Source: an uncultured Bacteroidota bacterium
GTDB taxonomy: Bacteria; Bacteroidota; Ignavibacteria; UBA10030; UBA6906
Assembly: GCA_963700635.1 (NCBI GenBank)
Contig: CAVOYH010000003.1
Span: 96,001-160,000, forward strand
Length of the DNA stretch: 64,000 bases
Direction: 5' to 3'
Below the pieces are notes generated by a model that had not been told where the DNA came from, did not search any database, and saw only the letters and a program-made list of their open reading frames with translations. This document shows, one piece after another, positions 12,258-64,000 of this stretch; the stretch's first letter is position 1, and each line of letters opens with the position of its first letter. Both the position numbers and the translations under genes were made by a program.

Positions 12258-12260
12258 TCG

Positions 12261-12333
12261 TGGACGGGGACGGAATCGAACCGCCGACACAAGGATTTTC
12301 AGTCCTTTGCTCTACCAACTGAGCTACCCGTCC
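12261..12333 (-). tRNA. tRNA-Phe(GAA), CCA not encoded
   Basis: GGACGGG TAGCTCAGTTGGTAGAGC AAAGGA CTGAAAA TCCTT GTGTC GGCGG TTCGATT CCGTC CCCGTCC A forms a full cloverleaf with anticodon GAA. It is followed by CGA, not CCA. Confidence 0.97.
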
Positions 12334-40856: not shown

Positions 40857-40926
40857 GATGCACTCCTTAAGTAGTGAGATGGTGGTGTGATTGATGAATC
40901 GTATCATGGCATGGTGCAAGCCATCC

Positions 40927-42166
40927 TCAGGGCCTGCCGTAGTACGGAGCCCCTTGTTTCTGTGTGTTGACTCTTGATGACCCGCTTGCCGGACCCATCC
41001 GTTGCGGGACCGGTACGCGAGAGATAGAGTTCCTTGCCGTTGCTGTACGTGAGGAAGAGATTGTCCAGTGTAAGCAGGCCAGGATAGAACGGTTCGGCGG
41101 TCTTGTCCGGATGCACCAGCAGAAGTGAGGATGCGCCGGAAGTCGTGGCGATGAACATGTCGCCATCGAGCGAGAAGGTGATGCCGTTTACACTCGCACC
41201 GTAGTAGTTGGCCGTAAGATCGTAGTACTTCTCCGCAGCACCCAAGGTGTCACCCGCAAGCGGGAAACGCCAGACACCTTCCACTGTGTCGATCCGCCCG
41301 CCGACATAAAGGTGGCTGTTGTACACCCGGACAGAACGGATATTAGCGGAAAAGGGGAATGTTCTCTGAGTCTTGTCCGGTTTTACGCGGATAATATTTG
41401 GCATATTGCCACCCACCCACATGTTGCCCGCGGGGTCGATATCAAAGTCATAGGGCACGATCCGCCCGAGCCCCACAAACGAGGCCGGGGTTCCGCCGCC
41501 TGCAGGAATCTGGTAGATGGCCCCGTCACGGCCGACAACCCCGCAGGCATACAGCGCGCCTCCCGTGCCAAACTTCAACCCGGTCCACTTCAGCACACCC
41601 GCGATAGGCGCACCGTACGTTCCGGCATCTGTCGTTCCGTTGGATTGAATACGTTTAATCCCTCCGGCCACATTATTTGTCACGATTGCCACATACACGT
41701 TCCCCGCCGCATCACAGGTGATAGCAAATGGTTCGCTTCCGCTGCCGAGATTTCCGAACACTCCGACCGCTTCTTCAAGCTTGTAGACAAACGCCGGCGC
41801 ACTGATCGCATCGGCACCGACAACGGAAACCCGGACATTGATGGAGTCCTTGATCAGTTTCGGGGCCAGCACCTGCAGCTGCGTTGCCGATGCCTGGAGG
41901 ACCTCTGCCATTGTGGCATCGAAAAACACAAGGTTTTCGCTGCGCACAGCGGAAAAATTCTGCCCGGTGAGCGTGATCCGTGTAACACCCGCCAGACCAC
42001 CGCCGGAAGGACTGAGGGAGCTCAGCACAGGGGTCAGCTTGCTCGCCGAGTTGTAGGTGGCATCATCATAGATGCTGACCGGGGGATCTTCCTTGCAACT
42101 GCTGAGCAATCCCGTCGAGAGCAGCACCAGGGCCACCCGGACCAGATGAGTCATAGAAGGTTTCAT
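40927..42166 (-). CDS. IPT/TIG-domain lipoprotein with beta-propeller (probable +1 frameshift near 40972)
   Basis: Lipobox LLSSC; TPVLSSLSP...ITLTGQNFS...NLVFFD. The frame-shifted C-terminus reads VNTQKQGAPYYGRP*. Confidence 0.78.
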
Positions 42167-42214
42167 GCGTACGATCCTATCCATCGTCTCGTTTCTATCG
42201 CGCGTTCAGTACCG

Positions 42215-43249
42215 CTACAACGAAAACTGAAATGAGAACCGGTGCACATTATTAAATATTCCGAAGGGAGTGATACAGTAGTCCACGGCGAGCCCCACGC
42301 CGCCGAGATCCTTACGAAGTCCGACGCCGTAGGTCATGGTGTATTCATCGCCGCCGCTGACGTATCCCGCCCGCAGGGCAACCAGGTCCATAAACAGGTA
42401 TTCCCCGCCGACACGGATCTGTTCCTGAAAATCACGCGGATGCTCTGCGTCAATGGCGAGCAGAAACTGGTGTTCGCCGGGATCAAGGTCCGTGAGATCC
42501 AGCACGTTCATCGACATCCCGATCCTGAATGTCAACGGAAGCTGGAACCCGTCCTTGATGTAGGTTACCTCTCTCGAGAAATTCCGCACTGTCATGCCGA
42601 AGGCCAGACTCTTGTACCCGGTATGGTAGAGAATGCCAAAGTCAAAGGCGAACACCCCGGTGCTGTTCGATGCCCGCACCGGATTGCCGCTTTCATCCAG
42701 CAGCAATGCCCCGCCGCTGCCCAATGCATTGACAACATCTCCGAGTGACTGGTTCACATACTTCACATTGCCGCCGATGGAGAATTTATCGTTTAGCGCG
42801 CGCGCATACCCCACGCCGAACATGTAACTTGTCGGTTTGAACGTGCCGAGGTCGAGATATCCCCGGTCATTGGGCCACCGGACAGTCTCCTCGAATGTCC
42901 CGTAGTTTGCCACCTGCAGCATAACACCCAGCACCCCGTACTCGCCTTCAAACGGATTAAATGCTGCAGAGGCGTACATATAGTTGATGTCCGCAATCCA
43001 GTTTGTCCGGGAGAGAAACACCGACGAGGCCCCTTGTAGTCGGGACATCCCCGCTGTGTTATAGAAGAGGGAAGACGACGTGCCCTCCACTGACGTAAAG
43101 GCTTCACCCAGCGCAACGGCCCGCGCATCCGGCAGAACATTCAGAAATTTCATGCCGGTTTGTGCGAGTTTCTTCTGTGCCACCGCCTCAGAAGGAAAGG
43201 CCCCGGCACAGAAGATCACCAGCACAAGACTTGTTACAATCGTTCTCAT
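42215..43249 (-). CDS. PorV/PorQ-family outer membrane beta-barrel
   Basis: KKLAQTGMKFL...ARAVALGEA, LFYNTAG, WIADI, LPLTFRIG, ALRAGY, VHRFSFQFSL. Confidence 0.85.
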   Translation of the reverse strand: MRTIVTSLVLVIFCAGAFPSEAVAQKKLAQTGMKFLNVLPDARAVALGEAFTSVEGTSSSLFYNTAGMSRLQGASSVFLSRTNWIADINYMYASAAFNPFEGEYGVLGVMLQVANYGTFEETVRWPNDRGYLDLGTFKPTSYMFGVGYARALNDKFSIGGNVKYVNQSLGDVVNALGSGGALLLDESGNPVRASNSTGVFAFDFGILYHTGYKSLAFGMTVRNFSREVTYIKDGFQLPLTFRIGMSMNVLDLTDLDPGEHQFLLAIDAEHPRDFQEQIRVGGEYLFMDLVALRAGYVSGGDEYTMTYGVGLRKDLGGVGLAVDYCITPFGIFNNVHRFSFQFSL

Positions 43250-43267
43250 GGGAAGCTCCGCTTTCCG

Positions 43268-45364
43268 TTAGCGTATCACAGACAATTTCTTGATCACGCG
43301 TTCACCGGTCCGGGTGTTCTCAAACACCACAATGTAGATTCCGCTCACGATCACCTGATTCGATGATGTCACGGAATTCCAGTACGCATCGCCGCTCCCG
43401 TCGGTGTGGTCAATCTCTTTGATCAATTCGCCCAGTTCGGTGTAAATCCGGATCTTGCAGTATCCGGGAATGTTGAAGAACGCAATCTTGTCCGGCTCCT
43501 GGTCGAACCGGAGTGTGGCAGCCGTTGAGGAGATACTGAACGGGTTGGGGACAATACGGATATCATTCATGGTCCAGCGGCCGTTTGTCCAGGTATTCGA
43601 CGTATCCTGATCCCCTGCCTGGCGCTTCAGGTAGGCGGGGTCAAACGACTGGGCATAAAGACGGCTGCTTGTGAGTGCGACGCCGGCCGGAGTGAGTCCG
43701 CCTCCTGTGTTAAGAGCGGGATCTCCCACAACCAGCACGTGATAGTAGTATGCCGGACCCCGGGCAGCGGTCATGTCATTGTAACTCCGGGCCGTCGATG
43801 GCAATTCGGCAAGCATGGTGTAGTCACCATCGTACCGTCCTTGAGCGCGGTAGACTCTGAATCCCTTCATGTTCGGATCGCCCGCATCGTAGACTTCCCA
43901 TTCCAACCCGATCTTGTCTCCCTGGGATGTAATCGTCAGAGATTTCGGGGGCATGGGGGGAGCGGCGAGGGTGTAGCCGGATTTGAAATTTGCCAGGGCC
44001 CGCCGGAAAGTCTGGAAGAGGGAGTCTTTTCCTGTGAGCACCGCGGTGTTCTTGATGAGGGCCTGGGCCGGGGTGGGGTTCGCCTTGTAGGCACGGCCAA
44101 CAGCAATCTGATTTTCGCGATCGAGACCGGACACGCCTTCGGCGAGCACGATCCGGACATCCTGTCCGGGCTCAAGTGTGTAGGGTCCGTAGCCATTTGC
44201 ATTGGACCAGCCGCCCGGCGTGCCGAGTGCGGGGTCGCCTGTCGGGGTAGCGAAGGCGCCGGTTGGCTCCACCCTGTCGGCGTGGCGCACAACATGTCCC
44301 TTCCGCATCCACCCCCACTTGGCCGTCATGCGGGCGGCGTTAAACATGTCGGCGTCAGGATTCGCCAATGGCTCATCGGAGCCCTCGTGCGAAGTCGTCG
44401 ATGGCTGGCTCAGATCATCCGTCGAGTCGGTCGCCGACCTGTCAGCATGTAACGTCACGATCCCGGCAAACTGCGAGGCACCCAAGCGTCCGACGGTATC
44501 CCGGGTATCGCCATACAGACTTGTTGCAGCAGGCGTCCAGATCGGCCCGCCAAGATTATCGTATTGTGTGAAGCCGGGATACTTGCCGTGCCAGGCATAC
44601 TGAACGCGCATATGCGGGGCGGTGTAGACGCCCGGGACATTCACGGCATCGTCCGGGTCATTCTTTACGCCGTCACCACGGACATCCAGCATCGTGTTGA
44701 TTCCCCAGCCTGTCGCATTGCCGATGACATAACGTGTCGTGGCGCATACCGCCAGACGGTACTGAAAATATACCACCACCGAGTCGAGCCGCTTGCCCGA
44801 TGTATTTGTAAACCGGTAGTCGCTGATGATGTAGTTGTCATGATACTGCTGGCTGAACTGAAAGATCTTCCGGGTCATGTCCAGACCGATGGAGGTCTTG
44901 ACCTCATTGAGAATCATCCGGTCGCCGGTAATGGTCGGGTCGATCCGTTTGATGTCAACAAGCTTGCCGTAGGAGACGACGCCGTCCACCGTGACCACAG
45001 GCGGCTCAAATCGTGAGACCAGCTCAAACTTCTGCGGGATAAAGGTATTACTCCCGCCGTACCGCGGGCCGACGCTGATCACCTTGTGCGGATAGACCGT
45101 GCCGTCAGCATCCTGATAGTTGGTGGTGCCAATCCACATCCCTTTTGCAGCCTGCATGTCCTGGTTTGTATAGATGGCGTTCCACTGGAGTCCGTCCTGC
45201 TGCTTCAGCACCCTCCCCTCCTCCTTTTCACACCCCATGTTCGCATACCAATTGTGCAGCGTGCCGACCGACATCCAGGTGGTCTCGTAATTCTGCGCCC
45301 ACGATGCCGGAGTAGTCACCAGAAGAACAATCCCGGGGACCAGAAACCTAACGAGGTTTTTCAT
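43268..45364 (-). CDS. Secreted FN3-containing protein with variant T9SS-like CTD (partner of the TonB receptor)
   Basis: Signal peptide ending SWA/Q; APPMPP...IGLEW...GFRVYR...YYYHV FN3; C-terminal IRIVPNPF...FFNIP..CKIRIYTELGELI...SGIYI...KLSVIR. Confidence 0.75.
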   Translation of the reverse strand: MKNLVRFLVPGIVLLVTTPASWAQNYETTWMSVGTLHNWYANMGCEKEEGRVLKQQDGLQWNAIYTNQDMQAAKGMWIGTTNYQDADGTVYPHKVISVGPRYGGSNTFIPQKFELVSRFEPPVVTVDGVVSYGKLVDIKRIDPTITGDRMILNEVKTSIGLDMTRKIFQFSQQYHDNYIISDYRFTNTSGKRLDSVVVYFQYRLAVCATTRYVIGNATGWGINTMLDVRGDGVKNDPDDAVNVPGVYTAPHMRVQYAWHGKYPGFTQYDNLGGPIWTPAATSLYGDTRDTVGRLGASQFAGIVTLHADRSATDSTDDLSQPSTTSHEGSDEPLANPDADMFNAARMTAKWGWMRKGHVVRHADRVEPTGAFATPTGDPALGTPGGWSNANGYGPYTLEPGQDVRIVLAEGVSGLDRENQIAVGRAYKANPTPAQALIKNTAVLTGKDSLFQTFRRALANFKSGYTLAAPPMPPKSLTITSQGDKIGLEWEVYDAGDPNMKGFRVYRAQGRYDGDYTMLAELPSTARSYNDMTAARGPAYYYHVLVVGDPALNTGGGLTPAGVALTSSRLYAQSFDPAYLKRQAGDQDTSNTWTNGRWTMNDIRIVPNPFSISSTAATLRFDQEPDKIAFFNIPGYCKIRIYTELGELIKEIDHTDGSGDAYWNSVTSSNQVIVSGIYIVVFENTRTGERVIKKLSVIR

Positions 45365-45419
45365 TCGCGCCTCAAGAAAAATACACATGTGGCTCCCGTA
45401 TGCACCCACAGGGAGCCTC

Positions 45420-48400
45420 TTAGAGATCTATCGAAAAACGGATTCCGTAAAAGATGTTCCGCGGGTTCAGAAACGTGAAGGTCTCCTGATTCGGCATGTC
45501 AATGTAGGCCTTGTCTTCAAGCGCCTGCCCGAGCTTGCCGGGATCCGCAGGTCCCATCTGTCCGTTTGCGAACTGATAATACTGTCCGTTCTCCGCAACG
45601 TAGTAGAACGGCCGTGTATGCTGGTTTTCGGCTTTCTGGAGATCCGAGAGAAGTCTCACCGCTACAATCGGCTGGAATGCAACACCTTCTTTGCGGACTG
45701 CGCCGGGACGATCATCACCGGGGACATTCACATACCCGACGGCTGTTCTGAATTGTTCCGGGAAGTCTGGCAGATGCAGTGACTTCATGTAGTTGTTGTA
45801 ATCATACGTGCCGAAGAACCCGTACGTTCCGGGAAAATACCGGAAATTCAGCAGGTTGGATACGTCCATGAAGAACTGCACGTTTGTCGGGCCAACTTTA
45901 AAATTCTTGCTGAGCCGCATGTCCACGTTCCAGTAATCCGTCCACTGCACATTGTATTCGAGTCCAGGGATTGAACCTCCGCCAGCCCATGTCGCGTACC
46001 GGCCGGAAGACCAGGTGCCCACGAGGTTCAGGCGCCATTCCCCGAGCAGAGACAGGCCGAGAAATTCCGGGCCGAGATTCGAGGGAGTGAAAAAATCCAC
46101 ATTCGCCCGGGCGAAAGGCCGCGGGATTGGTTTCTCCTGATACACATTCGACCGTTCGTAGTTCCGCTGCTCCACCGCACTCTCGTAGTAGGTGCCAAGT
46201 CCGAAGTAGCCCGTGGTGCGGACATCGTAGGTATAGTTAAAGAAACCCTGCACCCAGTTACCACGGTTCTTGTTCACCTGGATTTCGAAACCGCGGATAT
46301 CCTGATACTGATTGCTTGTCCGCTGGGTATAACTGACAAGCGAATTACGGCCGTAGTAGTTTACCGTTTTCGCCTGATTTGACACGTCTTTGTAGTAGGC
46401 AGCAATCCTCAGCAGATACTCGTCAAACAGACTGTGTTCGTATCCCAGTTCATACTGTACGGTTCTGGGGAACGGCGCTCCCGGATCAGCGATACTCATC
46501 ACCTGTCTTGTGTCGGTGTACCTGCGGATCAGGAAGAGGTTCAGCGGATCCGGAATCTGACGGAAGTGCCCGTAATTAAAGAACAGCTTTGCCTCATCGG
46601 AGATCGGGAACGCAATCGCAAGCCGCGGGCTCACCGTCAGCGTGGTCGGAGCTGAGACTCTCACCAGCGCGGTGTCGAGCAGGCTCTGGCCGGAAAAAGC
46701 GCTGTTGAACATGTCATCGGCGTATTCATACCAATCCCCGTTGGGATTCAAATACTCCAGTCTCAGTCCGACATTCGCAATCATCCCTTCGAATTCGAGT
46801 TTGTCCTGGAGATAGAGAGCGGCCCGGATTGGATAGTTGTGCCATGCGGTGTTGTAGCGGCCGCTTGGCAATGCGATATCTTCATTCCGTGACCGGACCC
46901 AGTTGTCCGTGTAGGCAAACTCCACGCCCGCTTTGACCTGATTATACTTGTCGAACTGTGTGGTCAGATCGAATTTCAGGCTCCATGTCGCCACGAGACT
47001 CGTATCACGGGAGTTGCTCATCCCAACACCGGTTCTCATGCCGGTGATTCCGGAACTCTCCGTATTATATGGCCAGTACCCGAATGGCGTTTCGTCAACG
47101 AAGTATCCGGGAACGATTTCGTACTTCTTCTCCTTGTCACGCAACGAACCGGGATTTGTGTTTGTCCCCTGGGAGTACTTCTGAAACGTGGCTTCGTAAA
47201 AGGTTACCGGACCGATTGCGTGTGAGAATTTTGCTCCGAGCATCTCGATGTCTGTTGTCGTCGGAGCCCAGTAGTCCGTCCCGAAAATCCTCGCATCGAC
47301 GTAACCCGACACAGAGTTGAGAGAGGTGAGCGCTTCTGCAATACTTGAGGCCGACTGGAAGATTCCTGGATTTCCGAGATTGTTGTCGTTGGTACCCTGC
47401 ATCTGGGCGCGCAGGTAGGAGCCCATCAGCTTCATGCCCGGCCCAACGTCGGATGTCAGCTTGATCTGGCCGCTGTATTCACGGTATGCCGGACGGGAGA
47501 GGGGAATAAGATACTGTGTTGCCTGCTGACGGTATGAGGCAAAGAACCGCAGGTTGCCGAGTTGCTTCCGATACTGCCGGGACCGGACCCCCAAAACCCA
47601 TATCCACGTCCCAGTCAGGATCTTTGATTTCCGGCTGACGACGGTGCTCCCAGAGCCACAGTTTCTGGACCGCCGAGGGGGAAAGATCATTAGTGGGATC
47701 TGCGTCACTCAACAATTTCCTTGAAATACTCTTCCATCCTTCAAAATCCGCGTACTGATCACGCGTCCACCTGTCCCATGAGGGTTGTCCATCGGAACCA
47801 AGCGAAGCCTGCGTTCCATCCCAGCATACGGCATCATCAACAAACGGACGGATCCAGTACGAGTTAAAATCGTAAATGGATGGGCCAAAATGTTTGGGGG
47901 CGGCCGGACGGTACCGGCCGATAAAATTAAAACTGTATTTGCTGGTGCTGCCTTCGCGGGTCACGACGTTCACAACGCCTGAACGGAGGTTGCCGTACTC
48001 TGCGTTGAACCCTCCGGTCTGAACCTGGACGTCCTGTATCGAACTGATACTGATCCCGGTGAACGGCTGGTTCGTACGTTCATCGCGCAGGGTCATCCCG
48101 TCCACAACAAACGCAGCCTGGTCAGCTCCACTGCCGCGGATCACAAGCCCCCCCTGAATACCCGCCTGAAGGGTGACCACACTGGCGACGTCGGTGACCG
48201 GGAGTTTCTCAATCTCATCGATCTCGATATTCGCCCGGCTGGCCGCGACGTCCCGTTGAACGACCGGACGCGTCGCAACGATGGTCACTTCTTCACCGGC
48301 TATGACCTCTTCGCCAAGGCGCAAGTTCAGGTCGGTTGTCTGGTCAATATCGACCCGGACGCCTGTCATGGATGTTGCCTTGTATCCCACCAGGGCAGCG

Positions 48401-48624
48401 GTAATTCTGTAACGTCCCGGGGGGATATTCAGTATGACGAAATACCCGTCAGGATTTGTCGCTGCGCCGAGCAGTGTCCCTTCGATCACAACATTCACGC
48501 TGGGCAACGGCTCACCGGTCTGTGCGTCACGCACCGTCCCAGCAATTTTTCCCGTTGTGCCGGCAAAACTGATCGATGAGACAACGATCAGGGCAGCACT
48601 GCAAAGAGTAAGGCACACTCTCAT
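45420..48624 (-). CDS. TonB-dependent receptor with N-terminal carboxypeptidase-regulatory-like domain (probable +1 frameshift near 47568)
   Basis: GTTGKIAGTVRD..TGEPL, IRGSG..Q..FVVDG, TGGFNAEYG...SGVVNVVTREG. After the shift it continues QLGNLRFF..., YLQDKLEF, VSPRL, YGHF, YELG, PRNIFYGIRFSIDL. Split in the ORF track as 47479-48624 and 45420-47708. Confidence 0.88.
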
Positions 48625-48738
48625 AGATGCTCCTGAAATGGTAGGTCCTGATATAGTGCTGAGGAATGGTCCGAGGTGCCGACTTGTCTGCGCGCAGGCT
48701 GGTAAGAGGACGGTGAGCAGACAATGGACAGTTATGAC

Positions 48739-48776
48739 TTGTGAACGAATTTACAAAACACAACTTGTATTGTCAA
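48739..48776 (-). promoter_or_regulatory. sigma70-like promoter of TonB operon 1 with overlapping palindromic operator
   Basis: TTGACA-N17-TAAATT (48776-48748); palindrome TTGTGAA-CGAA-TTTACAA at 48739-48756. Confidence 0.7.
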
Positions 48777-48822
48777 GAAAACTGATGCGAGTAAAGATTC
48801 AAAGAACGAACGTGTAAACCCT

Positions 48823-49827
48823 TTATTCATAGTCACTTACATGGATTTCGCGCTGATGGCCGGAATTCCGGAACAGGATAGTTCCATCACGGGACGATAT
48901 GTGCGCAGGTGTGTCATTACTCCCGGCAAATGATTCCCTCACTATCTCTCTTCCCCCTTCCGTAACAACATGGAGCGTGGGATCTGCATAACGAATACCC
49001 TCTGCCCCTGCCAGAATCCGTTCCATGACAAATCCTGCCGAAGTGCCTGCGCACGTCACACCGGTGATCACGCTCCCGCCGGGCGGTGATGTCCATTGAG
49101 AACACTCTCCGGATGGATCCAGCGGTCCGAACATCACTTCGTTTCGATCTGCCACAACAAAACGCCCGCTGCGAGCGTCAACAGCGGCGTTCCTCATCAG
49201 CAGCGGAAGAACTCTGACGCTCGCTCCCCGGACATCAAGAATTTCCGTCGCAACGGTTGGCAGCCCGGATCCCGACGCATAGGAAGAAACTATCACGGTG
49301 GCCCCATCACCGGATAAATAGATTTCGGAACCCGACTCAAAAGCGAGCACACCGGTCCAGAGCTCCTCCCCGGCCACCGAGTACATCACCACCCGTGCGC
49401 GATCGAAGGAAGGTCCGGAAACCAGAAAGACCATCCGGTCTCCGGCAACCGAACACTTGAGTATCCGTTCATGGTCCGGGGCGGCATCACCGAACGGGCG
49501 CCAGATGTTCACAGTGTTTCCCCGCGCATCAAGGAACTCAACGACTCCCGCGAACGCATCCACAACAACGGCTTCACCGGCATTGTCGCTCACCAGCACA
49601 CCGGGAAAGGGAGAGCCATACGGCACTAATTTTTCTATGGTATGCAGCAGAACGCCGGAGCGGGTGAGGATTCGCGCACTCCAGCGGCTGGCTTCAGGTT
49701 CTCCTTTTATCCCTTCGGTCGTCACCAACGATTTAATCCGGAAATTCCCGCGGCGTGATTCCAGATCCTCAGCAGAAAGTACGGCTGAGACGCCGAGAAC
49801 AACACACAGCATCAGAACAGGTTTCAT
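48823..49827 (-). CDS. Hypothetical secreted protein
   Basis: Signal peptide MKPVLMLCVVLGVSAVLSA; ATGA overlap with the upstream M23 gene; beta-rich composition. Confidence 0.7.
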   Translation of the reverse strand: MKPVLMLCVVLGVSAVLSAEDLESRRGNFRIKSLVTTEGIKGEPEASRWSARILTRSGVLLHTIEKLVPYGSPFPGVLVSDNAGEAVVVDAFAGVVEFLDARGNTVNIWRPFGDAAPDHERILKCSVAGDRMVFLVSGPSFDRARVVMYSVAGEELWTGVLAFESGSEIYLSGDGATVIVSSYASGSGLPTVATEILDVRGASVRVLPLLMRNAAVDARSGRFVVADRNEVMFGPLDPSGECSQWTSPPGGSVITGVTCAGTSAGFVMERILAGAEGIRYADPTLHVVTEGGREIVRESFAGSNDTPAHISSRDGTILFRNSGHQREIHVSDYE

Positions 49828-52181: not shown

Positions 52182-52189
52182 TGCTGATC

Positions 52190-54706: not shown

Positions 54707-54867
54707 GGGTGACAGGATCGTGCTTTCTTTTAAGGAGACGAATGCCGGGGAAAATGTCAACAGAGCACCCCACTCCGGCGACCTTCTTTCAGAAGAACGG
54801 CTGCAGAAGGACCTAACCGGGAGCGCCTGACTCCCGGGTGGTAATACTGAAAGAAAGAGGTCCGCTG

Positions 54868-54902
54868 AAACAGAGCCCCCCGCCAGAAAAAAAGCGGGGG
54901 GC
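54868..54902 (-). terminator. Probable terminator/stem-loop after gene 54998-56464
   Basis: GCCCCCCGC...GCGGGGGGC stem followed by TCTGTTT on the minus strand. Further hairpins lie nearby. Confidence 0.55.
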
Positions 54903-54997
54903 AATATACGGGCGGCGTTCACGTTGGGCGGAACCCGGAACGTACCGCCGCCGGTCTGGGTCCGGTGTATCGGACCACCGGCGGACCCGGAATATCC

Positions 54998-56464
54998 TTA
55001 CTTCAGAATCACCATCTTCTTTACTGCGGAATACGATCCTGCCTTCAGCGTATAAAAATATGTTCCGCTGGGCAGGTTTGCTGCGTCAAACGTGGCGCGA
55101 TACGTTCCCGCACCTTTTTCCTGGTTTATCAGCGTCGCGATTTCCTGGCCGAGGACATCAAACACCTTCAACGACACAAAGCCTGACTGCGGGATGGTGA
55201 ATTCAACGGTCGTCGTCGGGTTAAACGGATTGGGGTAGTTTTGCGACAGGGTATAACCCGATGGCAGTTCTCCGCCTATCTCTTCTACGCCGGTCGTGAA
55301 GCTGGGTAGTGTCCCGTTGTATTTCCACTTCTCAACGGTCCACCCGTAATACGATTGGCTGTAGAGGTTCTCGTTCTGATCCCATTTTACGTCGTAGGTG
55401 GAGGCGTACGCAGAAACGTTTCCCGGAATGTCTCCATCACCGCGCGATGAGTAGCTTCCGGTGATCGCAAAGGCCCAGGCGGCCTGATCGATCGTATTCA
55501 TGCTCGTGTCCGGAGAAATGAACGCGCCGGTGTTGCCGTTCAAGAGATAAATCCTTCCGTAGGAGTAGTTGGTCCCTCCGGACGGTTTCCACATCGAATC
55601 ACATGCCACAGCGAGGATGTTTTTTGATGCGAGATGAGCCAGCCCGATCGGTCCCGTACGCGATGGGGCTAAGGTACCGGTCAAGGTATCTTTGGGGCCC
55701 ATGCTGAAGCTGAATCCCGGTGCAAGAGTGTAACCGGTCGCGGGTGTCCCCACGTACTTTATCACCCTGAAATTTTTGTAGTCTGCGATGAATATTGCGT
55801 TCCCACTGGACGTCACGGCGATCCCTTTATAGACGCCGTCGGGAAGGTTGATTGTCGTGATCGGCGCATCGGTGTGTCCTGCAGGTGTCCACTGGGCAAT
55901 GGGGCGATACACTTTCAGGTCTGCGGTGACGCCCGTTGTCGAGTCGTTACACACGTAGACGTAACCGTTGGCGTCAACATCAATACCAAAAATGTTGTTC
56001 GTGCCGGTTTGCTGGCGGGGGAACGGGTCCACAATAGTGATCGTATCTGCTGTGTATTTGAACACCAGCACATTGTGGTCCGGATCATTATTTGCAACGT
56101 AGATCAGACTGTCCGGTGTTGCTTTGATTTTATACGCATTCAGCATCGGCACCTGGTCGAATCCGCCGTCGGTCCAGACCTGATAGATGCCCGATGTGAC
56201 TCCGGACCCGTACCCGTAAAAGTACTTTCGCCCGAGTCCGGAATCCGCATTAACGTAGGGGACCATAAAATTCCGGGTATTCCGGGTTGTCACGAGCGCA
56301 ACGAACATGTTTTCTTTGATCACACCCACACCCATGACCTGGTGCCCCGTGCCGTTGGCTTCGTTATCCCACGTTGCGTACAGGCAGTTCCACTGGGCGT
56401 CGGCGGAAGCGCCGAGTACCAGCATGAGTACAACCAACAAGCCGAATTGTAGGAATTGTTTCAT
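54998..56464 (-). CDS. T9SS type A sorting domain protein, predicted beta-propeller
   Basis: SD GGAGGA; signal peptide ending ADA/Q; GIDVDANGYVYV, GIAVTSSG..IFIAD; LSQNYPNPFNP...KKMVILK. Confidence 0.82.
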   Translation of the reverse strand: MKQFLQFGLLVVLMLVLGASADAQWNCLYATWDNEANGTGHQVMGVGVIKENMFVALVTTRNTRNFMVPYVNADSGLGRKYFYGYGSGVTSGIYQVWTDGGFDQVPMLNAYKIKATPDSLIYVANNDPDHNVLVFKYTADTITIVDPFPRQQTGTNNIFGIDVDANGYVYVCNDSTTGVTADLKVYRPIAQWTPAGHTDAPITTINLPDGVYKGIAVTSSGNAIFIADYKNFRVIKYVGTPATGYTLAPGFSFSMGPKDTLTGTLAPSRTGPIGLAHLASKNILAVACDSMWKPSGGTNYSYGRIYLLNGNTGAFISPDTSMNTIDQAAWAFAITGSYSSRGDGDIPGNVSAYASTYDVKWDQNENLYSQSYYGWTVEKWKYNGTLPSFTTGVEEIGGELPSGYTLSQNYPNPFNPTTTVEFTIPQSGFVSLKVFDVLGQEIATLINQEKGAGTYRATFDAANLPSGTYFYTLKAGSYSAVKKMVILK

Positions 56465-56535
56465 CGTTCCTCCTGATTGTTGCATGGCGTGAATGGCTGC
56501 CGGAATGACAGGCAAAAAGGCGCAGTCCTTCAATG

Positions 56536-56602
56536 AAGTTAACACAAACAATGTAAAAATCAAGGATTCCGGCTTGACTAAGGATGGGGGTTTGTCTATA
56601 TT
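56536..56602. promoter_or_regulatory. Divergent sigma70-like promoters
   Basis: Plus strand TTGACT-N17-TATATT (56574-56602) for TonB operon 2; minus strand TTGATT-N16-TAACTT with TG extension (56563-56536). Confidence 0.62.
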
Positions 56603-56726
56603 TTTACACAGTAACGGTGATCCTAGCCCCTCCGTCACATCCACAGATTTGCAGGAATGAGACCTTTTTTTCCCTTCTCAATCTCCCAGTAGACGAATGG
56701 CATTAACATCAACTAGAAGGTACACC

Positions 56727-59567
56727 ATGAGCATCCTTACCCGATGTGTGGCGGTTCTGCTCGGCCTTTGCCTCTGTATCCCCACGCTGTTTGCCGGGAC
56801 TTCCGGCAAGATTTCCGGCACAGTCCGGGATTCCAGGACAAAGGAACCACTTCCCGGGGTGAACCTCATTGTTGAGGGAACAACGCTCGGCGCATCAAGC
56901 TCCATCGACGGCCGGTATGTGATCCTCAATGTCCCGCCGGGGCGCCACAAGGTAATGGCCTCATTGATCGGTTACCGCCGATTTGAGGTAAACGAACTGC
57001 GCGTATCGGTGGATTTTACCACTCCCCTTGACATCGATCTGGTGGAGGGGAGCGTGGAACTTGACGCGGTGGTAATTCAGGCCGAGCGTTCGCCGCTCAT
57101 CCGCCAGGATCTCACCAACCCGGTGGCTTCCATCTCTTCGGAGGCCATCGAAGCCCTCCCGGTGACGGATATCAGCGAGGTGATCGGGCTACAGGCGGGG
57201 ATTACCGTCGATGACGACGGCAGTATCCATATCCGCGGCGGTTTGGGCAATGAGATCGCCTACACCCTGAACGGTATGAACATCAATAACCCGTATGGCA
57301 ACACCCGCTCGGTCGGCGTCGCCACCAATGCCGTCCGGGAGGTTTCCGTTTCCAGCGGCACGTTTAGTGCCGAATACGGCAGCGCCCTGAGTGGAGTGGT
57401 AAATTATGTTACCCGGGACGGCGGATCCAGGTGGGCTGGCAGCGCGAAGTATTACACCGGCGACCACGTCAGCAGCCACAAGGATCTCTTCTTTAATATT
57501 GACAATTTCAACCCCGCAAATGTGAACCGGACAGAGTTTACGATCGGCGGTCCCGTCGTGGGTGACAACCTGATGTTCTTTGCTTCAGGCGTCTACAACT
57601 GGAGCGGCGGACACCTGTACGGCCAGCGGATCTATCTCCCCACCGATTCGTATCTCTCACGGGAGGGGTTCCCTTCCGACGATCCGCGGCGCGGCACGGC
57701 GTCCTCTCCCTACTATTTCGGCCCGGTCGGTCACGACACGACGGACACGGTTGGTCTGCCCGGGGGTGACGGCAGTACCGTCTCCCTGAACTGGAGCCGT
57801 TCTTATAATATCCAGGGAAACCTGAGCTGGCGCGTTTTCCCTGAGATGAAGTTGAAGTACGAGTTTATTGTAAATTTTGATGAATCACCGGATGTAAACC
57901 CCTTCGCTGCCCGGTACAAACCTGACGGCATCGCTCTTGAACGTTATGAAGGGTACATGCACGCGGTGGAGTTCACACACACGGTGAGCCCTTCGATGTT
58001 CTACACGGTGAAGGGATCGTTTATCACGGATAAAGGACGTAGCTGGGCGTACGATAGCCCCACCGACCCGCGCTATGTCCCGTCATTTTATTCCCGCACC
58101 TTTCCCAATACGTCATACCTGACCGGCGGCACAGATCCCGATCGCTTCAGCCGGAAAACTGAGACTCTGGCGGGCAAGGTGGACCTCGTGGCGCAGCTAT
58201 TTGGCAACCATGAAGTAAAAGCCGGTATAGAAGTGCGGAGCCACCACCTGACGGTCGAGTCGTACACACTCCAGTTCCGCGATCCGAACGACCCGAGCGC
58301 GGAACCCAGCTTCACCAATGCCATCGGGAACGGGAATGTCTTCCTCCCCTATATCCCGACCGTTGAGGGGGGCTACACCGCCTATGACAGGAAGCCGCTG
58401 CAAATGGCCGCCTATGTGCAGGACAAGATCGAGCTCTTCCAGTCTATCATCCTCAACCTTGGCGTCCGTTACGAATACTTCGATCCGGCAGCCAGGTACA
58501 ACAACAACCTGAGCCAGGAAGTGACCGATTCGAACACGACGTTTATTCAGGCTAACCTCGCCGATGCGTCAGTCAAACACATGGTCAGCCCCCGTATCAG
58601 CGTTTCGTATCCCATTACGGATCAGGGGACCATTCGATTCTCCTACGGACATTTTTACCAGATTGGTTCTCTCTCCAGTCTGTACAGCAATCCCAACTTC
58701 CGCGCACCACAGGGCTCGACTCCGTCATTCGGCAATCCGGACGTGCGTCCTCAAAAGAGCGTACAGTATGAACTCGGCCTGCAGCAGGGGTTGACTGAGG
58801 ACCTGAAAATAGAACTCTCGGGTTATTACAAGGACGTGCGCGACTACATATACTCGCAGCGCGTGATCACCGCCCGGGGCGACAAGCAGTACAACCTGCT
58901 CACCAATTTGAGTTATGCCAACACCCGCGGTATCAGCATTTCGCTGCTCAAGCGGCGTTCTGTTGATGACCTCCTCTCGGCCACACTTGACTATACCTTC
59001 CAGGTGGCCGAGGGGAACCGCACACAGCCCACGGATGAGATTTTCTTTAATGAGCAGCAGGGGAGGCTGAGTCAGACCTATCTGGTGCCGCTGAGTTTCG
59101 ACCGGAGCCACACGATTACCAGCACGGTCTCTCTTTCACAACCCAACGACTGGTCCGTGAGTATGATCGGCTATCTGCGCACCGGCACCCCGTACACTCC
59201 GGAGTTCCCGTCGAACGTGATTCCTATCTCGTTCGTGCAGAACAGCGACCGCCAGCCGATGCAGTGGAATGTGGACCTGAAGGTTGAGAAGTTCTTCACC
59301 TTCGGTCCGTTTTCCTATTCCGTGTTCGTGCAGGTGGATAATCTGTTCGACGCCCAGAATGAGCTCTACGTCTACGTGAATTCCGGCCGCGCGCTCTACA
59401 ATATCTCCCAGACACTGCAGCCGGAGCTCCTTTCCGACCTCAGAAACCGGATCACTCGGGACGACCCGGGGATGATTCCGTTGAGCGGCGTGGACAACTA
59501 CTATGCTAATCCGGGAAATATCAGCACCCCGCGGTTGATCCGCGTTGGTGCATCGATCCTATTCTAA
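56727..59567 (+). CDS. TonB-dependent receptor with N-terminal carboxypeptidase-regulatory-like domain
   Basis: GTSGKISGTVRD..TKEPLPG, HIRGG..NE..Y.LNG, SGTFSAEYG.ALSGVVNYVTRDG, YVQDKIE, VSPRI, SYGHF, YELG; terminal F. Confidence 0.9.
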   Translation: MSILTRCVAVLLGLCLCIPTLFAGTSGKISGTVRDSRTKEPLPGVNLIVEGTTLGASSSIDGRYVILNVPPGRHKVMASLIGYRRFEVNELRVSVDFTTPLDIDLVEGSVELDAVVIQAERSPLIRQDLTNPVASISSEAIEALPVTDISEVIGLQAGITVDDDGSIHIRGGLGNEIAYTLNGMNINNPYGNTRSVGVATNAVREVSVSSGTFSAEYGSALSGVVNYVTRDGGSRWAGSAKYYTGDHVSSHKDLFFNIDNFNPANVNRTEFTIGGPVVGDNLMFFASGVYNWSGGHLYGQRIYLPTDSYLSREGFPSDDPRRGTASSPYYFGPVGHDTTDTVGLPGGDGSTVSLNWSRSYNIQGNLSWRVFPEMKLKYEFIVNFDESPDVNPFAARYKPDGIALERYEGYMHAVEFTHTVSPSMFYTVKGSFITDKGRSWAYDSPTDPRYVPSFYSRTFPNTSYLTGGTDPDRFSRKTETLAGKVDLVAQLFGNHEVKAGIEVRSHHLTVESYTLQFRDPNDPSAEPSFTNAIGNGNVFLPYIPTVEGGYTAYDRKPLQMAAYVQDKIELFQSIILNLGVRYEYFDPAARYNNNLSQEVTDSNTTFIQANLADASVKHMVSPRISVSYPITDQGTIRFSYGHFYQIGSLSSLYSNPNFRAPQGSTPSFGNPDVRPQKSVQYELGLQQGLTEDLKIELSGYYKDVRDYIYSQRVITARGDKQYNLLTNLSYANTRGISISLLKRRSVDDLLSATLDYTFQVAEGNRTQPTDEIFFNEQQGRLSQTYLVPLSFDRSHTITSTVSLSQPNDWSVSMIGYLRTGTPYTPEFPSNVIPISFVQNSDRQPMQWNVDLKVEKFFTFGPFSYSVFVQVDNLFDAQNELYVYVNSGRALYNISQTLQPELLSDLRNRITRDDPGMIPLSGVDNYYANPGNISTPRLIRVGASILF

Positions 59568-59597
59568 CAATTTCATTCTTAATCAGCGGGATTCCGT

Positions 59598-62500
59598 ATG
59601 AAGAAGACGATGATCATGCTCCTCGCGTTCCTGGCCATTGTGGTGCTGCGCACCGCGGCCACGGCACAGGAGATTGACTGGAAGACGTTTGATCCCAAAC
59701 GGGCGACCCCGGATGAATGGCAGCGCGTCCTGAGTTTTATGGAACAGAATGAGCGGCGCCTGGCTAAAACAACAGGCGAAGCGCGTGAGATCCGCAGCCT
59801 GATCATCCGCGGCAACAAGATTACCACCGTCGTCTATAATTACGGGAGTATAACCCGTCCGAATACGCTCGGCAACGTGGCGGACCTAGTGTGGAACCGC
59901 CTGGGATACGGGTTTGAGTTTACTCCTCTGGTCGGCGCAACGGTCACCGACACCAGCGGCAGGCAGGTCAGCATTCTTAATGACGGCATGTGGCTGGCCA
60001 ATCAGGGGGGGTATTCTCCCGACAACACGGTCAAATGGGGATGGCTCCCGAAGGCCGGTTATGCAGCTTCCGGCCAGAATGATATCGCCGCATGGAGTCA
60101 CCGGTCCGATGTGGGTGGCGACCTGACACGCCGGCCCCACAGCTGGCCGGAGTCATGGTACAACCAGACACTCGGACGGTATGTCTGGCCGGCATTCCTC
60201 GGAAACGATGCAACTGCCCCGGACGAAGAGGCATATTTTGTTGTGGACGATTACACCAATGCCAAGTATCCATACTATCCGTTTCCCGATGATTCATCAA
60301 AGCGCGGCCTGGGTCTGGATATGGAGTGCCGTTTCTTCCAGTTCAACAACCCTCTGGCCGAAGACATCATTTTCCTCGTCTATCGTGTAACGAACAAAAG
60401 TCCAAAAACCATCAACAAGGTCTACTTCGGCATGTACGGTGACCCGCATGTCGGTGGTCCAGCCGATTACGGAGATGACCTCGCGTATTTTATCCCCCCC
60501 AGGGGGGTGCTCGCCGACCCGTTTCCCCAGCGCGCACGATCCATGGTCTATGCCTGGGATGACAATGGGACGGGGGACGGCGGTCTGACCTGCGGTTACT
60601 TCGGGTTCAAATTTCTCGAATCGCCGACCAACTCCGCCAACGGGCGGGACGATGACGACGACGGGATCAACGATGAAAGTCCGTTTAATGACGCAGGATT
60701 CTATATTGACGGTGTGACGTTCCCCCTGAACACGGGAATCGAGGACACGATAAAATACATCAAAGTGTTCGGAAAAATCAAAGCCCGGTGGGCGGGCGAC
60801 GAGGATGGCGACTGGGATCCTGAAAAAGACGACGTCGGCATCGATGGTATCGCCGGCACCGGGGATTTCGGCGAGGGGAACAAGAAACCGGACATCGGGT
60901 ATGACGCCAACGGCATCCTGGTCTCCGAACCGCACTTCGGCATCCGTGACGTTGACGAGTCGGATCAGATCGGTCTGACCAGCTTTAATGCCCTCGGCTA
61001 TACCAACGGCGTTCCGAATGTCCCGAAGAATGACGTCTTCTTCTACCAGCTGCTGTCTTCCGACAGTATTGCCATTGACCAGGTGCTCTTCCGGACGCCG
61101 AGCGACAACATCTTCCTCTACGGCTCCGGACCATTCCCGCTGGCTCCGGGCGGGACCCAGCGGTTCTCGATCGCGCTGATGATGGGGGAGAATCTGCCCG
61201 ATCTGCTCCTGAATGCAGAAACTGCACAGCGTGTGCTTGAAGCCAACTACCTGTTTGCCCAGCCCCCGCCCAAACCAAACGTTCGTGCAATCCCCGGCGA
61301 CCGAAAGGTAACCCTCTACTGGGACGCTGCGCCGGAAATTGCCGTGGATCCGCTTACCGCCACGCAAGATTTTGAAGGGTACAAGATTTACCGGAGCGAG
61401 GACTATACCTTCAGTGATGTCTACACCATCACCGACGCGAACGGCGCGGCATTCCTGCCGAATGCGATGATCGATGCGACCGGGCAACGCGCGCAGTTTG
61501 ATCTCGTGAACGAGTGGTCCGGCCTGCATCCTGTGGAGTACATCGGCCGCGGCGTGAAGTACAACCTTGGCAACAACTCCGGCCTCGTCCACGAGTTTGT
61601 GGACTCAACCGTCACCAACGGCAAGACCTATTACTACGCCGTGGCGTCCTACGACCATGGCTTCGACAGTCTCGGTGTACAACTCCCTCCGACAGAGTCG
61701 CAGATCGCAATCACGAAGGACCCCGTGACCGGCGTGCTGTCTTTTGACCAGAACACGGTCTCCGCCGTGCCGGGACCGCTTCCATCGGGTCAGACAAAAG
61801 CGATAGTCGACAATGACTTTATGCCCAGGCGCGTGAAGGGGATCTCCACCGGTTCCATGACTGTGAAGGTCATGGAGGATGTGGCTGTCCTCGATGGCGC
61901 TCAGTACAATATCGATTTCCGCACAGCGGCCTCGAAGGTGGTCTATGATATTCAATCCCTCACCTTCCACACCGACAATTTCATCTCTCGCGACACGGTG
62001 TTCGTTCCGCTGAGCAGGAAAAACCTCATTACTTCCACCGTTACGGTAAAAGATGCTGCCGGTGCAACCGTTAACCCGTCGCTCTATCGTATTGATGTTC
62101 CGGGAGGAAGGATCCGCGGTGTTGCGCCCGGCAACCTTCCGGCTAATGCGGCATTCAGCATAACGTATCAGTACTACACCGTGTTCGAAAGCAACCGGCT
62201 TGCCGCGGAAGATGATAACGCGGTATTCGACGGTATGCGCGTGTATGTCAAAGATGTGCCGCTGGGGATTGATTCGGCCAACAGCGGCTGGGCAAGCAAG
62301 AATAATACATCCCTCACCGCACGTGTGCACAAGACCATTGCCCTGCCAACCGCACCGTTCCGGCCGGCCCCGCTCGATTTCCAGATTCAGTGGAACAGAA
62401 CTGACACGACGGCCAACGGCAAGTGGGCATTCCCGGGTGACACGCTCCTGAACAATTCCGGCCGCCGTGTGGTGGTCTGCCCGTTCAGAATCATCAACGT

Positions 62501-63095
62501 CACCGATACCTCAACCATCCGCGTACTCGTGGACAAGGCCCAGACGGATAGTATGTGGAGACCGGGACGGGAGATTGTCATCGTCACACCGCCCAAATAC
62601 GCTCCCCAGTCCCCCATCCCTGTGCTGGTCTCAGTCACGTTCTCCGCAACCCCCGGACAGGCATTAGTCCTTCCCACACAGGGTAACGTGTTCGAGGTCA
62701 AGACCTCGAAACCGTTTGCGGCCGGGGATCAATACACCTTCACGAGTACGTCGTCCAAATTTGATGCCGCCCGGGCCACCAATGCCCTGGATCAGATTCG
62801 TGTGGTCCCGAATCCCTACGTCGGCTACAGCGACATAGAGCAGCCGGGAGCAAGCTCGATCCGCCGCGGAGAAAACAAACTGCAGTTCCGCAATCTCCCT
62901 CCAAAGTGCACGATTCGTATCTACTCGCTTGTGGGTGAACTCGTCGATACAATCGTGAAGGATGATGGCAACAGTTATGTTGACTGGCAGTTGCTCTCCT
63001 ACGAAGGCCAGCGGCTTGCCTACGGCGTGTATATCTATCATGTGGATGTGCCCGGTGTGGGCGAGAAGATCGGCCGGTTGGCGCTGATTAAGTGA
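59598..63095 (+). CDS. Large secreted protein with acidic Ca-binding-like motifs, FN3 and variant T9SS-like CTD (partner of the TonB receptor)
   Basis: Signal peptide ending ATA/Q; NGRDDDDDGINDE, DEDGDWD; PPPKP...KVTLYWD...DFEGYKIYRS...YYYAVASYD; IRVVPNPY...FRNLP.KCTIRIYSLVGELV...GVYIYHV...RLALIK. Confidence 0.8.
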   Translation: MKKTMIMLLAFLAIVVLRTAATAQEIDWKTFDPKRATPDEWQRVLSFMEQNERRLAKTTGEAREIRSLIIRGNKITTVVYNYGSITRPNTLGNVADLVWNRLGYGFEFTPLVGATVTDTSGRQVSILNDGMWLANQGGYSPDNTVKWGWLPKAGYAASGQNDIAAWSHRSDVGGDLTRRPHSWPESWYNQTLGRYVWPAFLGNDATAPDEEAYFVVDDYTNAKYPYYPFPDDSSKRGLGLDMECRFFQFNNPLAEDIIFLVYRVTNKSPKTINKVYFGMYGDPHVGGPADYGDDLAYFIPPRGVLADPFPQRARSMVYAWDDNGTGDGGLTCGYFGFKFLESPTNSANGRDDDDDGINDESPFNDAGFYIDGVTFPLNTGIEDTIKYIKVFGKIKARWAGDEDGDWDPEKDDVGIDGIAGTGDFGEGNKKPDIGYDANGILVSEPHFGIRDVDESDQIGLTSFNALGYTNGVPNVPKNDVFFYQLLSSDSIAIDQVLFRTPSDNIFLYGSGPFPLAPGGTQRFSIALMMGENLPDLLLNAETAQRVLEANYLFAQPPPKPNVRAIPGDRKVTLYWDAAPEIAVDPLTATQDFEGYKIYRSEDYTFSDVYTITDANGAAFLPNAMIDATGQRAQFDLVNEWSGLHPVEYIGRGVKYNLGNNSGLVHEFVDSTVTNGKTYYYAVASYDHGFDSLGVQLPPTESQIAITKDPVTGVLSFDQNTVSAVPGPLPSGQTKAIVDNDFMPRRVKGISTGSMTVKVMEDVAVLDGAQYNIDFRTAASKVVYDIQSLTFHTDNFISRDTVFVPLSRKNLITSTVTVKDAAGATVNPSLYRIDVPGGRIRGVAPGNLPANAAFSITYQYYTVFESNRLAAEDDNAVFDGMRVYVKDVPLGIDSANSGWASKNNTSLTARVHKTIALPTAPFRPAPLDFQIQWNRTDTTANGKWAFPGDTLLNNSGRRVVVCPFRIINVTDTSTIRVLVDKAQTDSMWRPGREIVIVTPPKYAPQSPIPVLVSVTFSATPGQALVLPTQGNVFEVKTSKPFAAGDQYTFTSTSSKFDAARATNALDQIRVVPNPYVGYSDIEQPGASSIRRGENKLQFRNLPPKCTIRIYSLVGELVDTIVKDDGNSYVDWQLLSYEGQRLAYGVYIYHVDVPGVGEKIGRLALIK

Positions 63096-63195
63096 GAGAC
63101 GCTGTGCCCCCTCCCCCGGACTGACGAGCGGGAGGGGGGATACGCAGAGAAGGACAGAGAATTGATGTTCACTACTGAAAGCGTATGGAGGTTGT

Positions 63196-64000
63196 ATGAA
63201 TAGTAGCTACTGCACACGGGGCACACAGGCGGTGGTGCTTCTGCTGGCGTTCGCTGTTCTGAGCACCGCTTCTGCGGATGCCCAGCTGTTCCGCAGCACC
63301 GCGAAGGTCGGCACGACAGCAGCCCAGTTCCTGAAGATCGGTGTCGGCGCCCGCGCCCTGGGCATGGGCGGGGCACAGGTGGGAGTCACGGGCGACATCA
63401 GCGCCATCTACTGGAACCCCGCCGCTCTCTCGCGCATGAACGTGGTCAGCGAACTGACCTTTAACCATGCAAACTGGCTCGCCGACATCAACTACGACTT
63501 CGCCGCAGGCGTGATGCCAATCGGCGACCTGGGCACGTTCGGACTCTCGGTCATCTCCCTCCGCGTACCCGAAGAGATCGTCACCACCGTCGCCAACCCC
63601 GACGGCGACGGCCGGCGCTGGGACGCTTCCTCACTCGCGTTCGGACTCACCTACGCGCGGAACCTGACGGACCGCTTCTCCATCGGGCTCAACTTGAAAT
63701 TTATCCATGAGAGTATCTGGAGCGAGAGTGCATCCGGGTTTGCCATCGACGTCGGCACACTGTATATCACGGAGATTCCCGGCCTCACGATCGGGGCGTC
63801 GATCGCGAACTTCGGCACAAAAATGCAGCTCGACGGCCGTGATCTCAATTTTAACTACGATCCGGACGACAATGCCGGCACAGGGCCGAACAACATCCCC
63901 TCCAAACTCGAAACCGGAGCGTATGACCTTCCGCTCACCTTCCGGATTGGTCTTGCCTGGGACCTCTACCCCGTTGATGAGTTCAGAACAACATTTGCGG
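63196..64000 (+). CDS. PorV/PorQ-family outer membrane beta-barrel (3'-truncated)
   Basis: Absent from the ORF track because it has no stop in the window. SD GGAGG, ATG 63196; translates KVGTTAAQFLKIGVGARALGMGGA...IYWNPAALS...WLADI...LPLTFRIG. Confidence 0.88.
   Translation, partial: MNSSYCTRGTQAVVLLLAFAVLSTASADAQLFRSTAKVGTTAAQFLKIGVGARALGMGGAQVGVTGDISAIYWNPAALSRMNVVSELTFNHANWLADINYDFAAGVMPIGDLGTFGLSVISLRVPEEIVTTVANPDGDGRRWDASSLAFGLTYARNLTDRFSIGLNLKFIHESIWSESASGFAIDVGTLYITEIPGLTIGASIANFGTKMQLDGRDLNFNYDPDDNAGTGPNNIPSKLETGAYDLPLTFRIGLAWDLYPVDEFRTTFA

Follow-up and report, generated by a model that had tools for sequence, protein, structure and literature searches.

A 64,000-nucleotide stretch of contig CAVOYH010000003.1 (positions 96,001 to 160,000; GenBank assembly GCA_963700635.1) from an uncultured bacterium of the Ignavibacteria, here called the window, was found by open reading frame (ORF) listing and family scans to carry the same trio of genes twice. 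Each trio encodes a TonB-dependent receptor, an unnamed protein (hereafter the middle protein) and a barrel of the PorV/PorQ family. The arrangement is conserved across several bacterial phyla and is not yet described; a survey of open full texts, with subscription journals and supplements outside its scope, found no description of it linked to a receptor. The explanation we favor, with slightly better than even confidence, is that the trios are two paralogous uptake modules within a peptidoglycan-degradation locus, in which a middle protein held by a private barrel would serve the receptor. That the private PorV-like barrel holds the middle protein on the cell appears probable from the comparisons below. 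The idea that the middle protein acts as a lid for the receptor draws on a single feature, the constant adjacency of receptor and following middle gene in three types of module (A, B, and C).

Set A lies on the minus strand and set B on the plus strand of the window, in divergent orientation; a gap of 8 kb that contains four minus-strand genes separates them. A prediction made from the window sequence without database searches, referred to here as the sequence-only reading, had described them as two copies of a three-gene module. Both trios are present where it placed them, but they are distant, old paralogs rather than copies. The receptors share 26% identity by BLASTP (E value, 3e-30; 505 columns), the barrels 30% (E value, 2e-25), and the middle proteins 33% over the last 127 amino acids (E value, 8e-13). 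Along their whole length the two middle proteins could be related by profile-profile alignment with hhalign, at probabilities of 98 to 99% for the tail, 82% for the N-terminal domain (E value, 1e-5; 349 columns), and 78% for the FN3 region, in which B carries an insert of ~55 residues.

To examine conservation, a synteny scan of species-representative genomes with joint alignment was used; from the 99 confirmed relatives the best 80 were retained, every one belonging to the A family, and the window proteins were searched against all ORFs of these 80 loci. By record label, 31 loci were of Ignavibacteria type (including Melioribacter and Stygiobacter), 20 of Rhodothermia type, 5 of Balneolales type, and 2 from KSB1/Zhuqueibacter; a further 10 were labeled generically as Bacteroidetes or Bacteroidota, 7 as Cytophagia or Chitinophaga-like, and 5 just as "bacterium". 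Of 72 evaluable loci, 70 had a receptor gene directly upstream of the A middle gene and in the same orientation, and 71 of 73 had a PorV-family gene no more than 1.5 kb downstream. All three genes stood together on one strand in 64 of the 66 loci evaluable on both sides, the only exceptions being L025 and L076. For A, the order is kept in other genomes, the lack of which would have counted against the sequence-only reading.

Further paralogous modules were identified among these loci. Six carry a third module, C, immediately after A, with the gene order barrel, receptor, middle protein and with all three genes kept. Within a genome, A and C share 44 to 46% identity between receptors, 35 to 40% between middle proteins, and 44 to 54% between barrels, and the C barrels form one clade in a quick tree (support, 99). 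In loci with two modules, barrels and variant-tail proteins occur 1:1. Six loci have a B-like receptor gene upstream of A in divergent orientation, followed in two of them (L017 and L041) by the B middle gene. In the Ignavibacterium loci L052 (11988-12950), L055, and L058 to L060, an extra gene for a 320-amino-acid (aa) lipoprotein is located between the middle protein and the barrel.

The C-terminal tails of the middle proteins link them to type IX secretion system (T9SS) cargo. Eight window proteins end in a canonical type A tail; the tail of the two middle proteins is a variant that starts with Ile-Arg-Val/Ile-Val-Pro-Asn-Pro-Phe/Tyr, continues with an insert of ~8 to 14 residues, and then shows a conserved Cys-x-Ile-x-Ile-Tyr ... 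Gly-Glu-Leu block. The variant tail of A aligns over its full length with the type A C-terminal domains (CTDs) of the window (hhalign probability, 93%; E value, 3e-7), and the AlphaFold2 model of A ends in a seven-stranded sandwich, matching the 3+4 sandwich described in PMC11285876. For the suggestion of a variant T9SS-like tail, this relationship stands for A; it is weak for B, as taken up below. An NCBIfam scan was conducted on 83 C-terminal fragments of 140 residues, including 79 variant tails of the A/C type. The last ~90 positions of the PorZ model were the top match for 74 of the 79, with E values down to 1e-10, and the second-ranked match for 2; the match was absent in 3, from Rubrivirga. 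The type A model TIGR04183, with a cutoff of 23 bits, was reached by 3 of the 79 variant tails, and 76 fell below it; of the window tails, A scored 17.0 bits and B gave no match, placing both outside this family. The other type A model, PF18962, matched none of the 83 middle-protein family members (43 A and 40 B) at an E value of 0.01 or better. For type B, CHU_C (PF13585) gave no match in the window middle proteins and weak matches (E value, ~1e-3) in 2 of 43 A relatives and 2 of 40 B relatives. The window B tail matched the PorU and PorZ tails weakly. By sequence comparison, the variant tail is related to type A CTDs while falling outside their family model.

A profile of the variant tail searched against 1.84 billion representative sequences returned 10,207 matches at an E value of 1e-3, 3,595 at 1e-10, and 98 at 1e-30. 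No family count is given, since ordinary tails are probably among the weaker matches. Five giant proteins, P0241 (3,930 aa), P0252, P0310, P0368, and P0374, contained 11 to 26 internal repeats matching part of the profile. These repeats suggest that the core of the variant tail is related to a repeated immunoglobulin-like module.

Three relatives of middle protein A provide a natural control. They carry a canonical type A tail (TIGR04183, 41.5 to 44.6 bits) with no PorZ-tail match, and none of the three has an adjacent PorV-family gene or receptor. The direction is the one predicted if the variant tail is anchored by the neighboring barrel, and the comparison supports that view within its small number of cases (n = 3). 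In L025, the neighbors of the canonical-tail relative are other type-A-tailed proteins.

Both barrels scored above the 90-bit cutoff of the PorV/PorQ family NF033709, as did the homologs in L004 and L038 (194.1 and 192.5 bits), and the profile of the barrel A family matched PorV of F. johnsoniae (6h3i_F; E value, 1.6e-16). The claim of the sequence-only reading that the middle protein is held by its own PorV paralog gains support by comparison, through the coupling to a private barrel, the PorZ-tail match, and the three canonical-tail controls.

The middle proteins belong to two large families, each with >1,000 homologs, nearly all unnamed in the case of A. Middle protein A belongs to no Pfam or NCBIfam family and consists of a Sec signal, an unnamed beta-rich N-terminal domain (N-domain; residues ~25 to 470), a probable FN3 domain (~476 to 556), a linker, and the variant CTD (~596 to 698). 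Middle protein B has a Sec signal, an N-domain with Asp-rich inserts, an FN3-like region with an insert, extra beta domains (~700 to 1060), and the variant CTD. The A model is of good quality, with a predicted local distance difference test (pLDDT) score of 80.8 and a predicted template modeling score of 0.81, and confidence in the B model is low (pLDDT, 67.9). Asp-rich stretches at ~340 to 460 of B are kept across its family and are reminiscent of calcium-binding repeats; they are modeled at low confidence. That the middle proteins are not lipidated agrees with what was found: a lipobox-like motif occurred in 1 of 43 A-family and 0 of 40 B-family members. The predicted FN3 domain has support for A, whose profile matched solved FN3 modules at residues 476 to 556 (E value, 2.6e-4) and for which Foldseek found FN3 tandems. 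Pfam found none in either window protein (PF00041 matched 1 of 43 A and 0 of 40 B members), and for B the alignment to A is the sole support. As had been anticipated, no SusD family matched any of the 43 A and 40 B members at an E value of 0.01 or better.

Searches with the structural models added little on the N-domain. Foldseek comparison of both models with the PDB returned only FN3 chains, PorZ, and weak matches (template modeling [TM] score, ~0.2) that pair the A N-domain with the beta-sandwich at the N terminus of GH94 and cyclic-glucan enzymes, from which no function is deducible. The ESM Atlas search with the A N-domain yielded unnamed clusters only, without any named cluster. As leads only, the Atlas suggested relatives in Zixibacteria, Fidelibacterota, and Gemmatimonadota (scores, 0.92 to 0.94).

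TonB-dependent receptors are defined by a Plug domain and a 22-strand barrel domain, and both receptors match Plug and barrel, receptor A through a Plug piece and a B-like barrel piece of an interrupted gene. By sequence they are not of the SusC family: against the 368-bit cutoff of the SusC/RagA model TIGR04056, receptors A and B scored 60.3 and 77.1 bits, and intact homologs 62 to 72 bits. The proposal that the middle protein replaces SusD was therefore off target, with receptors scoring so far below that cutoff and relatives that are Ignavibacteria-like, not Bacteroidia. The best σ70-like matches (10 of 12 positions) lie just upstream of the receptor genes, at 48776-48748 (minus) and 56574-56602 (plus), and a scan of the window gave a total of such matches no higher than in shuffled sequence. 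A terminator scan was likewise not above shuffles.

Table 1. Coordinates of the receptor-linked gene sets, the genes following set A, module C, and the canonical-tail relatives
Feature	Sequence	Position	Strand	Length	Remarks
Receptor A, N-terminal piece	Window	47479..48624	minus	381 aa	Signal peptide; CarboxypepD_reg-like PF13715, E 3e-19; Plug, E 1.8e-8
Receptor A, barrel piece	Window	45420..47708	minus	762-aa ORF	Real reading joins N-terminal piece near 47565; weak TonB-receptor NCBIfam matches
Middle protein A	Window	43268..45364	minus	698 aa from second Met (713 aa from 45409)	No Pfam family
Variant CTD of middle protein A	Window	43268-43579	minus
Barrel A	Window	42215..43249	minus	344 aa	NF033709, 195.9 bits
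Conserved lipoprotein	Window	40904..42184	minus	426 aa	Lipobox Cys then Lys-Glu-Asp; Pfam TIG/IPT, E 8e-11; propeller repeats
Type-A-tailed protein	Window	39495..40919	minus	474 aa	Canonical CTD, TIGR04183, 38.4 bits; otherwise unnamed
GHL10 enzyme	Window	36918..39299	minus	793 aa	PF02638, E 8e-67; fn3; canonical type A CTD
Receptor B	Window	56697..59567	plus	956 aa	CarboxypepD_reg-like; Plug, E 4e-11; PF00593, E 5.5e-29
Middle protein B	Window	59598..63095	plus	1165 aa	No Pfam family
Variant CTD of middle protein B	Window	62790-63095	plus	~last 101 aa
Barrel B	Window	63196..64000	plus	First 268 aa	Cut by window end; NF033709, 165.8 bits
Module C	L004	14628-21304			Also L024, L026, L033, L037, L079; KSB1-like and unassigned Bacteroidota metagenome-assembled genomes
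Canonical-tail relative	L025	9983-12034
Canonical-tail relative	L076	10001-12085
Canonical-tail relative	L049	848-4531			Second gene there

As judged from the gene order, a larger conserved operon begins with the triad and runs receptor, middle protein, barrel, a lipoprotein with a TIG domain and a beta-propeller, a type-A-tailed protein, and a GHL10 enzyme. A homolog of the lipoprotein was found in 64 of the 80 loci and stood directly after the barrel in 62 of 68. Its lipobox Cys is followed by acidic residues, also in the homologs, an arrangement that we take to resemble the surface-export signal of Bacteroidota. Homologs of the 474-aa type-A-tailed protein occurred in 60 of the 80 loci, and of the GHL10 enzyme in 43. 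The latter matches Cwp19 of C. difficile (PDB 5oq2; E value, 1.2e-84), and its Pfam family presumably also includes DigH of E. coli. It is likely a Cwp19-like enzyme that cleaves the glycan strands of peptidoglycan. Cwp19 has been reported as a lytic transglycosylase (PMC6016235), and DigH to degrade denuded glycans (PMC12288456). An amidase gene is often near the triad (26 of 80 loci).

Nearly all genes between 13026 and 56644 of the window lie on the minus strand and form a ~43-kb cluster for peptidoglycan breakdown and recycling. Its secreted enzymes with type A tails comprise Amidase_3, M23, GH18, and GHL10 proteins, and it also encodes NamZ (on the plus strand), a NagZ-PBP4B fusion, NagK, an AmpG-family permease, NagX, an L-Ala-D/L-Glu epimerase, an NlpC/P60 protein, a NagB-like protein, and a class-A-beta-lactamase/S11-like protein. 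This context points to the uptake of peptidoglycan fragments, and the guess that muropeptides are the ligands fits it.

Other features of the cluster include the 987-aa fusion at 15686-18649, which joins a NagZ-like beta-N-acetylhexosaminidase (residues ~74 to 385) to a PBP4B/AmpH-like serine hydrolase (~620 to 960), and an 876-aa protein (13026-15656) with an Omp85-family match only in the last ~200 residues and no assignment for the long stretch before them. A DUF4922 protein and a 535-aa GT2-domain protein are encoded at 20990-23619, inside the catabolic cluster; in 18 of the 80 loci, the GT2 gene also occurs upstream of receptor A. A single tRNA-Phe gene (GAA; 12260-12333, minus strand) lies at the lower edge.

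Under the favored explanation, the middle protein would cross the inner membrane by Sec, the signal peptide for which is visible in the sequence, and would then be exported by the T9SS. Its tail would be kept rather than swapped for a lipopolysaccharide anchor and would be captured by the co-encoded barrel, as suggested by their co-occurrence and by the tail similarity. This could place the N-domain on its putative FN3 stalk at the surface beside the receptor encoded immediately upstream, as the operon context suggests. From context as well, the N-domain may bind or process peptidoglycan-derived glycans that the secreted amidase and the Cwp19-like enzyme of the locus set free, and may hand these on to the receptor. 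A broader formulation is doubtful, although we entertain it: a three-part machine in which a T9SS-delivered, nonlipidated capture subunit with a PorZ-like tail would have its own barrel to dock it next to or on top of the receptor, acting here on peptidoglycan glycans, duplicating as a unit (A, B, and C), and constituting a widespread second capture architecture for TonB-dependent receptors in Ignavibacteria, Rhodothermota, Balneolota, and KSB1.

Several observations weigh against the favored explanation. The tail of B relates weakly to the type A CTDs of the window (hhalign probability, 35%). Both barrels fall below the ortholog cutoffs within their family: on PorV (NF033710; cutoff, 250 bits), A, B, and the L038 homolog scored 73, 72.9, and 79.9 bits, and on PorQ (NF033711; cutoff, 220 bits), 92.7, 86.9, and 77.1 bits. 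They also fell below PorV2 (NF052325; cutoff, 325 bits), with 45.9 bits for A and 99 bits for B, for which the 268 residues present make this a weaker test. No T9SS core genes are located in the window; a T9SS is presumed present in the bacterium because eight proteins with canonical type A CTDs are encoded in the window. For the B triad, only the adjacency of receptor B and middle B was seen outside the window (L017 and L041), the loci scanned being those of the A family. Receptor A is split into two overlapping frames by a one-base frame change near 47565, with a stop following; the uninterrupted reading of an intact homolog (L002) across this junction indicates that a single base shifts the frame. 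Intact homologs of 1,063 to 1,070 aa were found in other loci. Those in L005, L022, L041, L042, and L066 are split as well, perhaps through errors of assembly and not through decay. In this genome receptor A may be either a real pseudogene or the product of an assembly error. The N-domain has many invariant polar residues, and no informative fold for it was obtained from PDB profile searches, Foldseek, or the ESM Atlas; an enzymatic role for the middle protein is therefore as possible as a binding one. Finally, the TIG-propeller protein is a candidate surface lipoprotein and an equally good candidate for the lid.

The last two points combine into an alternative in which the middle protein, anchored by the barrel, works at the surface as an enzyme or in glycan capture but makes no contact with the receptor, the lid or partner being the TIG-propeller lipoprotein after the barrel. 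We regard this as unlikely, but the lipoprotein is a serious rival because alternative lids reported so far are all lipoproteins; this is reported for the known lids of non-SusC receptors in Bacteroides, including the BtuG family (bioRxiv 10.1101/2023.03.17.533168). The usual position of the lipoprotein directly after the barrel, its lipobox Cys with the acidic residues behind it, its propeller repeats, and the numerous invariant polar residues of the middle-protein N-domain all fit such an arrangement. It is at odds with the adjacency of receptor and middle gene, which varies least of all features among modules A, B, and C, with the 6 of 68 loci that showed no lipoprotein gene directly after the barrel, and with the lack of any recognized catalytic fold in the middle protein.

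Alternatively, the barrel could be a FadL-like channel or accessory outer membrane protein that assists uptake and the middle protein ordinary T9SS cargo of a housekeeping PorV and the sortase. The FadL superfamily includes the PorV family, weak Toluene_X and BamG matches were obtained for barrel B, and FadL-like barrels have roles outside the T9SS, BamG being an example (PMC12578637). This explanation appears quite improbable given that the barrel covaries with the type of tail, being absent beside all three canonical-tail relatives but found next to the variant-tail proteins in each of the 71 loci that could be evaluated downstream (71 of 71), that barrels and variant-tail proteins are equal in number in two-module loci, and that the middle-protein tail resembles that of PorZ. 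A coincidental adjacency, or one peculiar to this genome and of no functional meaning, might be suspected from the interruption of receptor A, which is the only observation in its favor and is confined to this genome. We give it almost no credence: the triad order is kept in 64 of 66 evaluable loci of distinct species, spread over several phylum-level groups, and so is not due to chance.

If the anchored-partner explanation is true, private PorV/PorQ paralogs would gain a concrete job, so far a hypothesis in a review: each would permanently hold a specific cargo protein whose PorZ-like tail is not processed by the sortase. TonB-dependent receptors would also have T9SS-delivered partners, instead of or besides lipoproteins, in lineages other than the classical Bacteroidia. 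The analysis further defines the two large unnamed families of middle proteins and a conserved locus for the scavenging of bacterial cell walls, which make up a major pool of carbon and nitrogen in soils and sediments. The idea is testable because cultured carriers exist, namely, Stygiobacter electus, Rubrivirga sp. IMCC43871, and Rhodohalobacter sp. 8-1.

Among known systems, PorQ-PorZ and PorV-PorU of Porphyromonas gingivalis offer a precedent in which T9SS cargo keeps its CTD and a barrel of this family holds it at the surface (PMC10202324, PMC10947112). PorZ and PorU are the two T9SS proteins with retained tails, the PorZ CTD being bound by PorQ and the PorU CTD by PorV, and the same review proposes that cognate PorV-like barrels protect CTDs (PMC10202324). 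The tails described here match that of PorZ best and the barrels are NF033709 members; unlike in that system, the barrels score below the PorQ and PorV ortholog cutoffs, and retention of the tail is proposed from comparison. The middle protein is also unlike PorZ save for the tail (Foldseek to 5m11, 241 columns; TM score, 0.13), and its gene lies in the receptor operon of a nutrient locus and has no secretion genes for neighbors.

PorP-like barrels are the binding partners of type B cargo (PMC9143113), and in SprB-SprF and PG1035-PorP a dedicated, co-encoded barrel anchors specific T9SS cargo without lipopolysaccharide (PMC9143113), which the present modules may parallel. Here, the barrel is instead of the PorV/PorQ family, the tail is type A-like, and a TonB-dependent receptor is linked. 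With SusC/SusD, the modules share a surface accessory gene directly after the receptor, a CarboxypepD_reg-like domain, and secreted degradative enzymes in the locus; they differ in that the receptors are not SusC/RagA and the partner has no SusD match and is no lipoprotein. The BtuG, XusB, and DUF-family lids are likewise conserved beside non-SusC receptors and are proposed in the preprint by Price et al. to bind the outer face. Those lids are lipoproteins delivered by the lipoprotein route, whereas the middle protein has a T9SS-like tail and its own barrel, with a lipoprotein encoded two genes downstream. We propose, by analogy, that the system would work like the anchoring of PorZ by PorQ or of SprB by SprF, but attached to a nutrient receptor.

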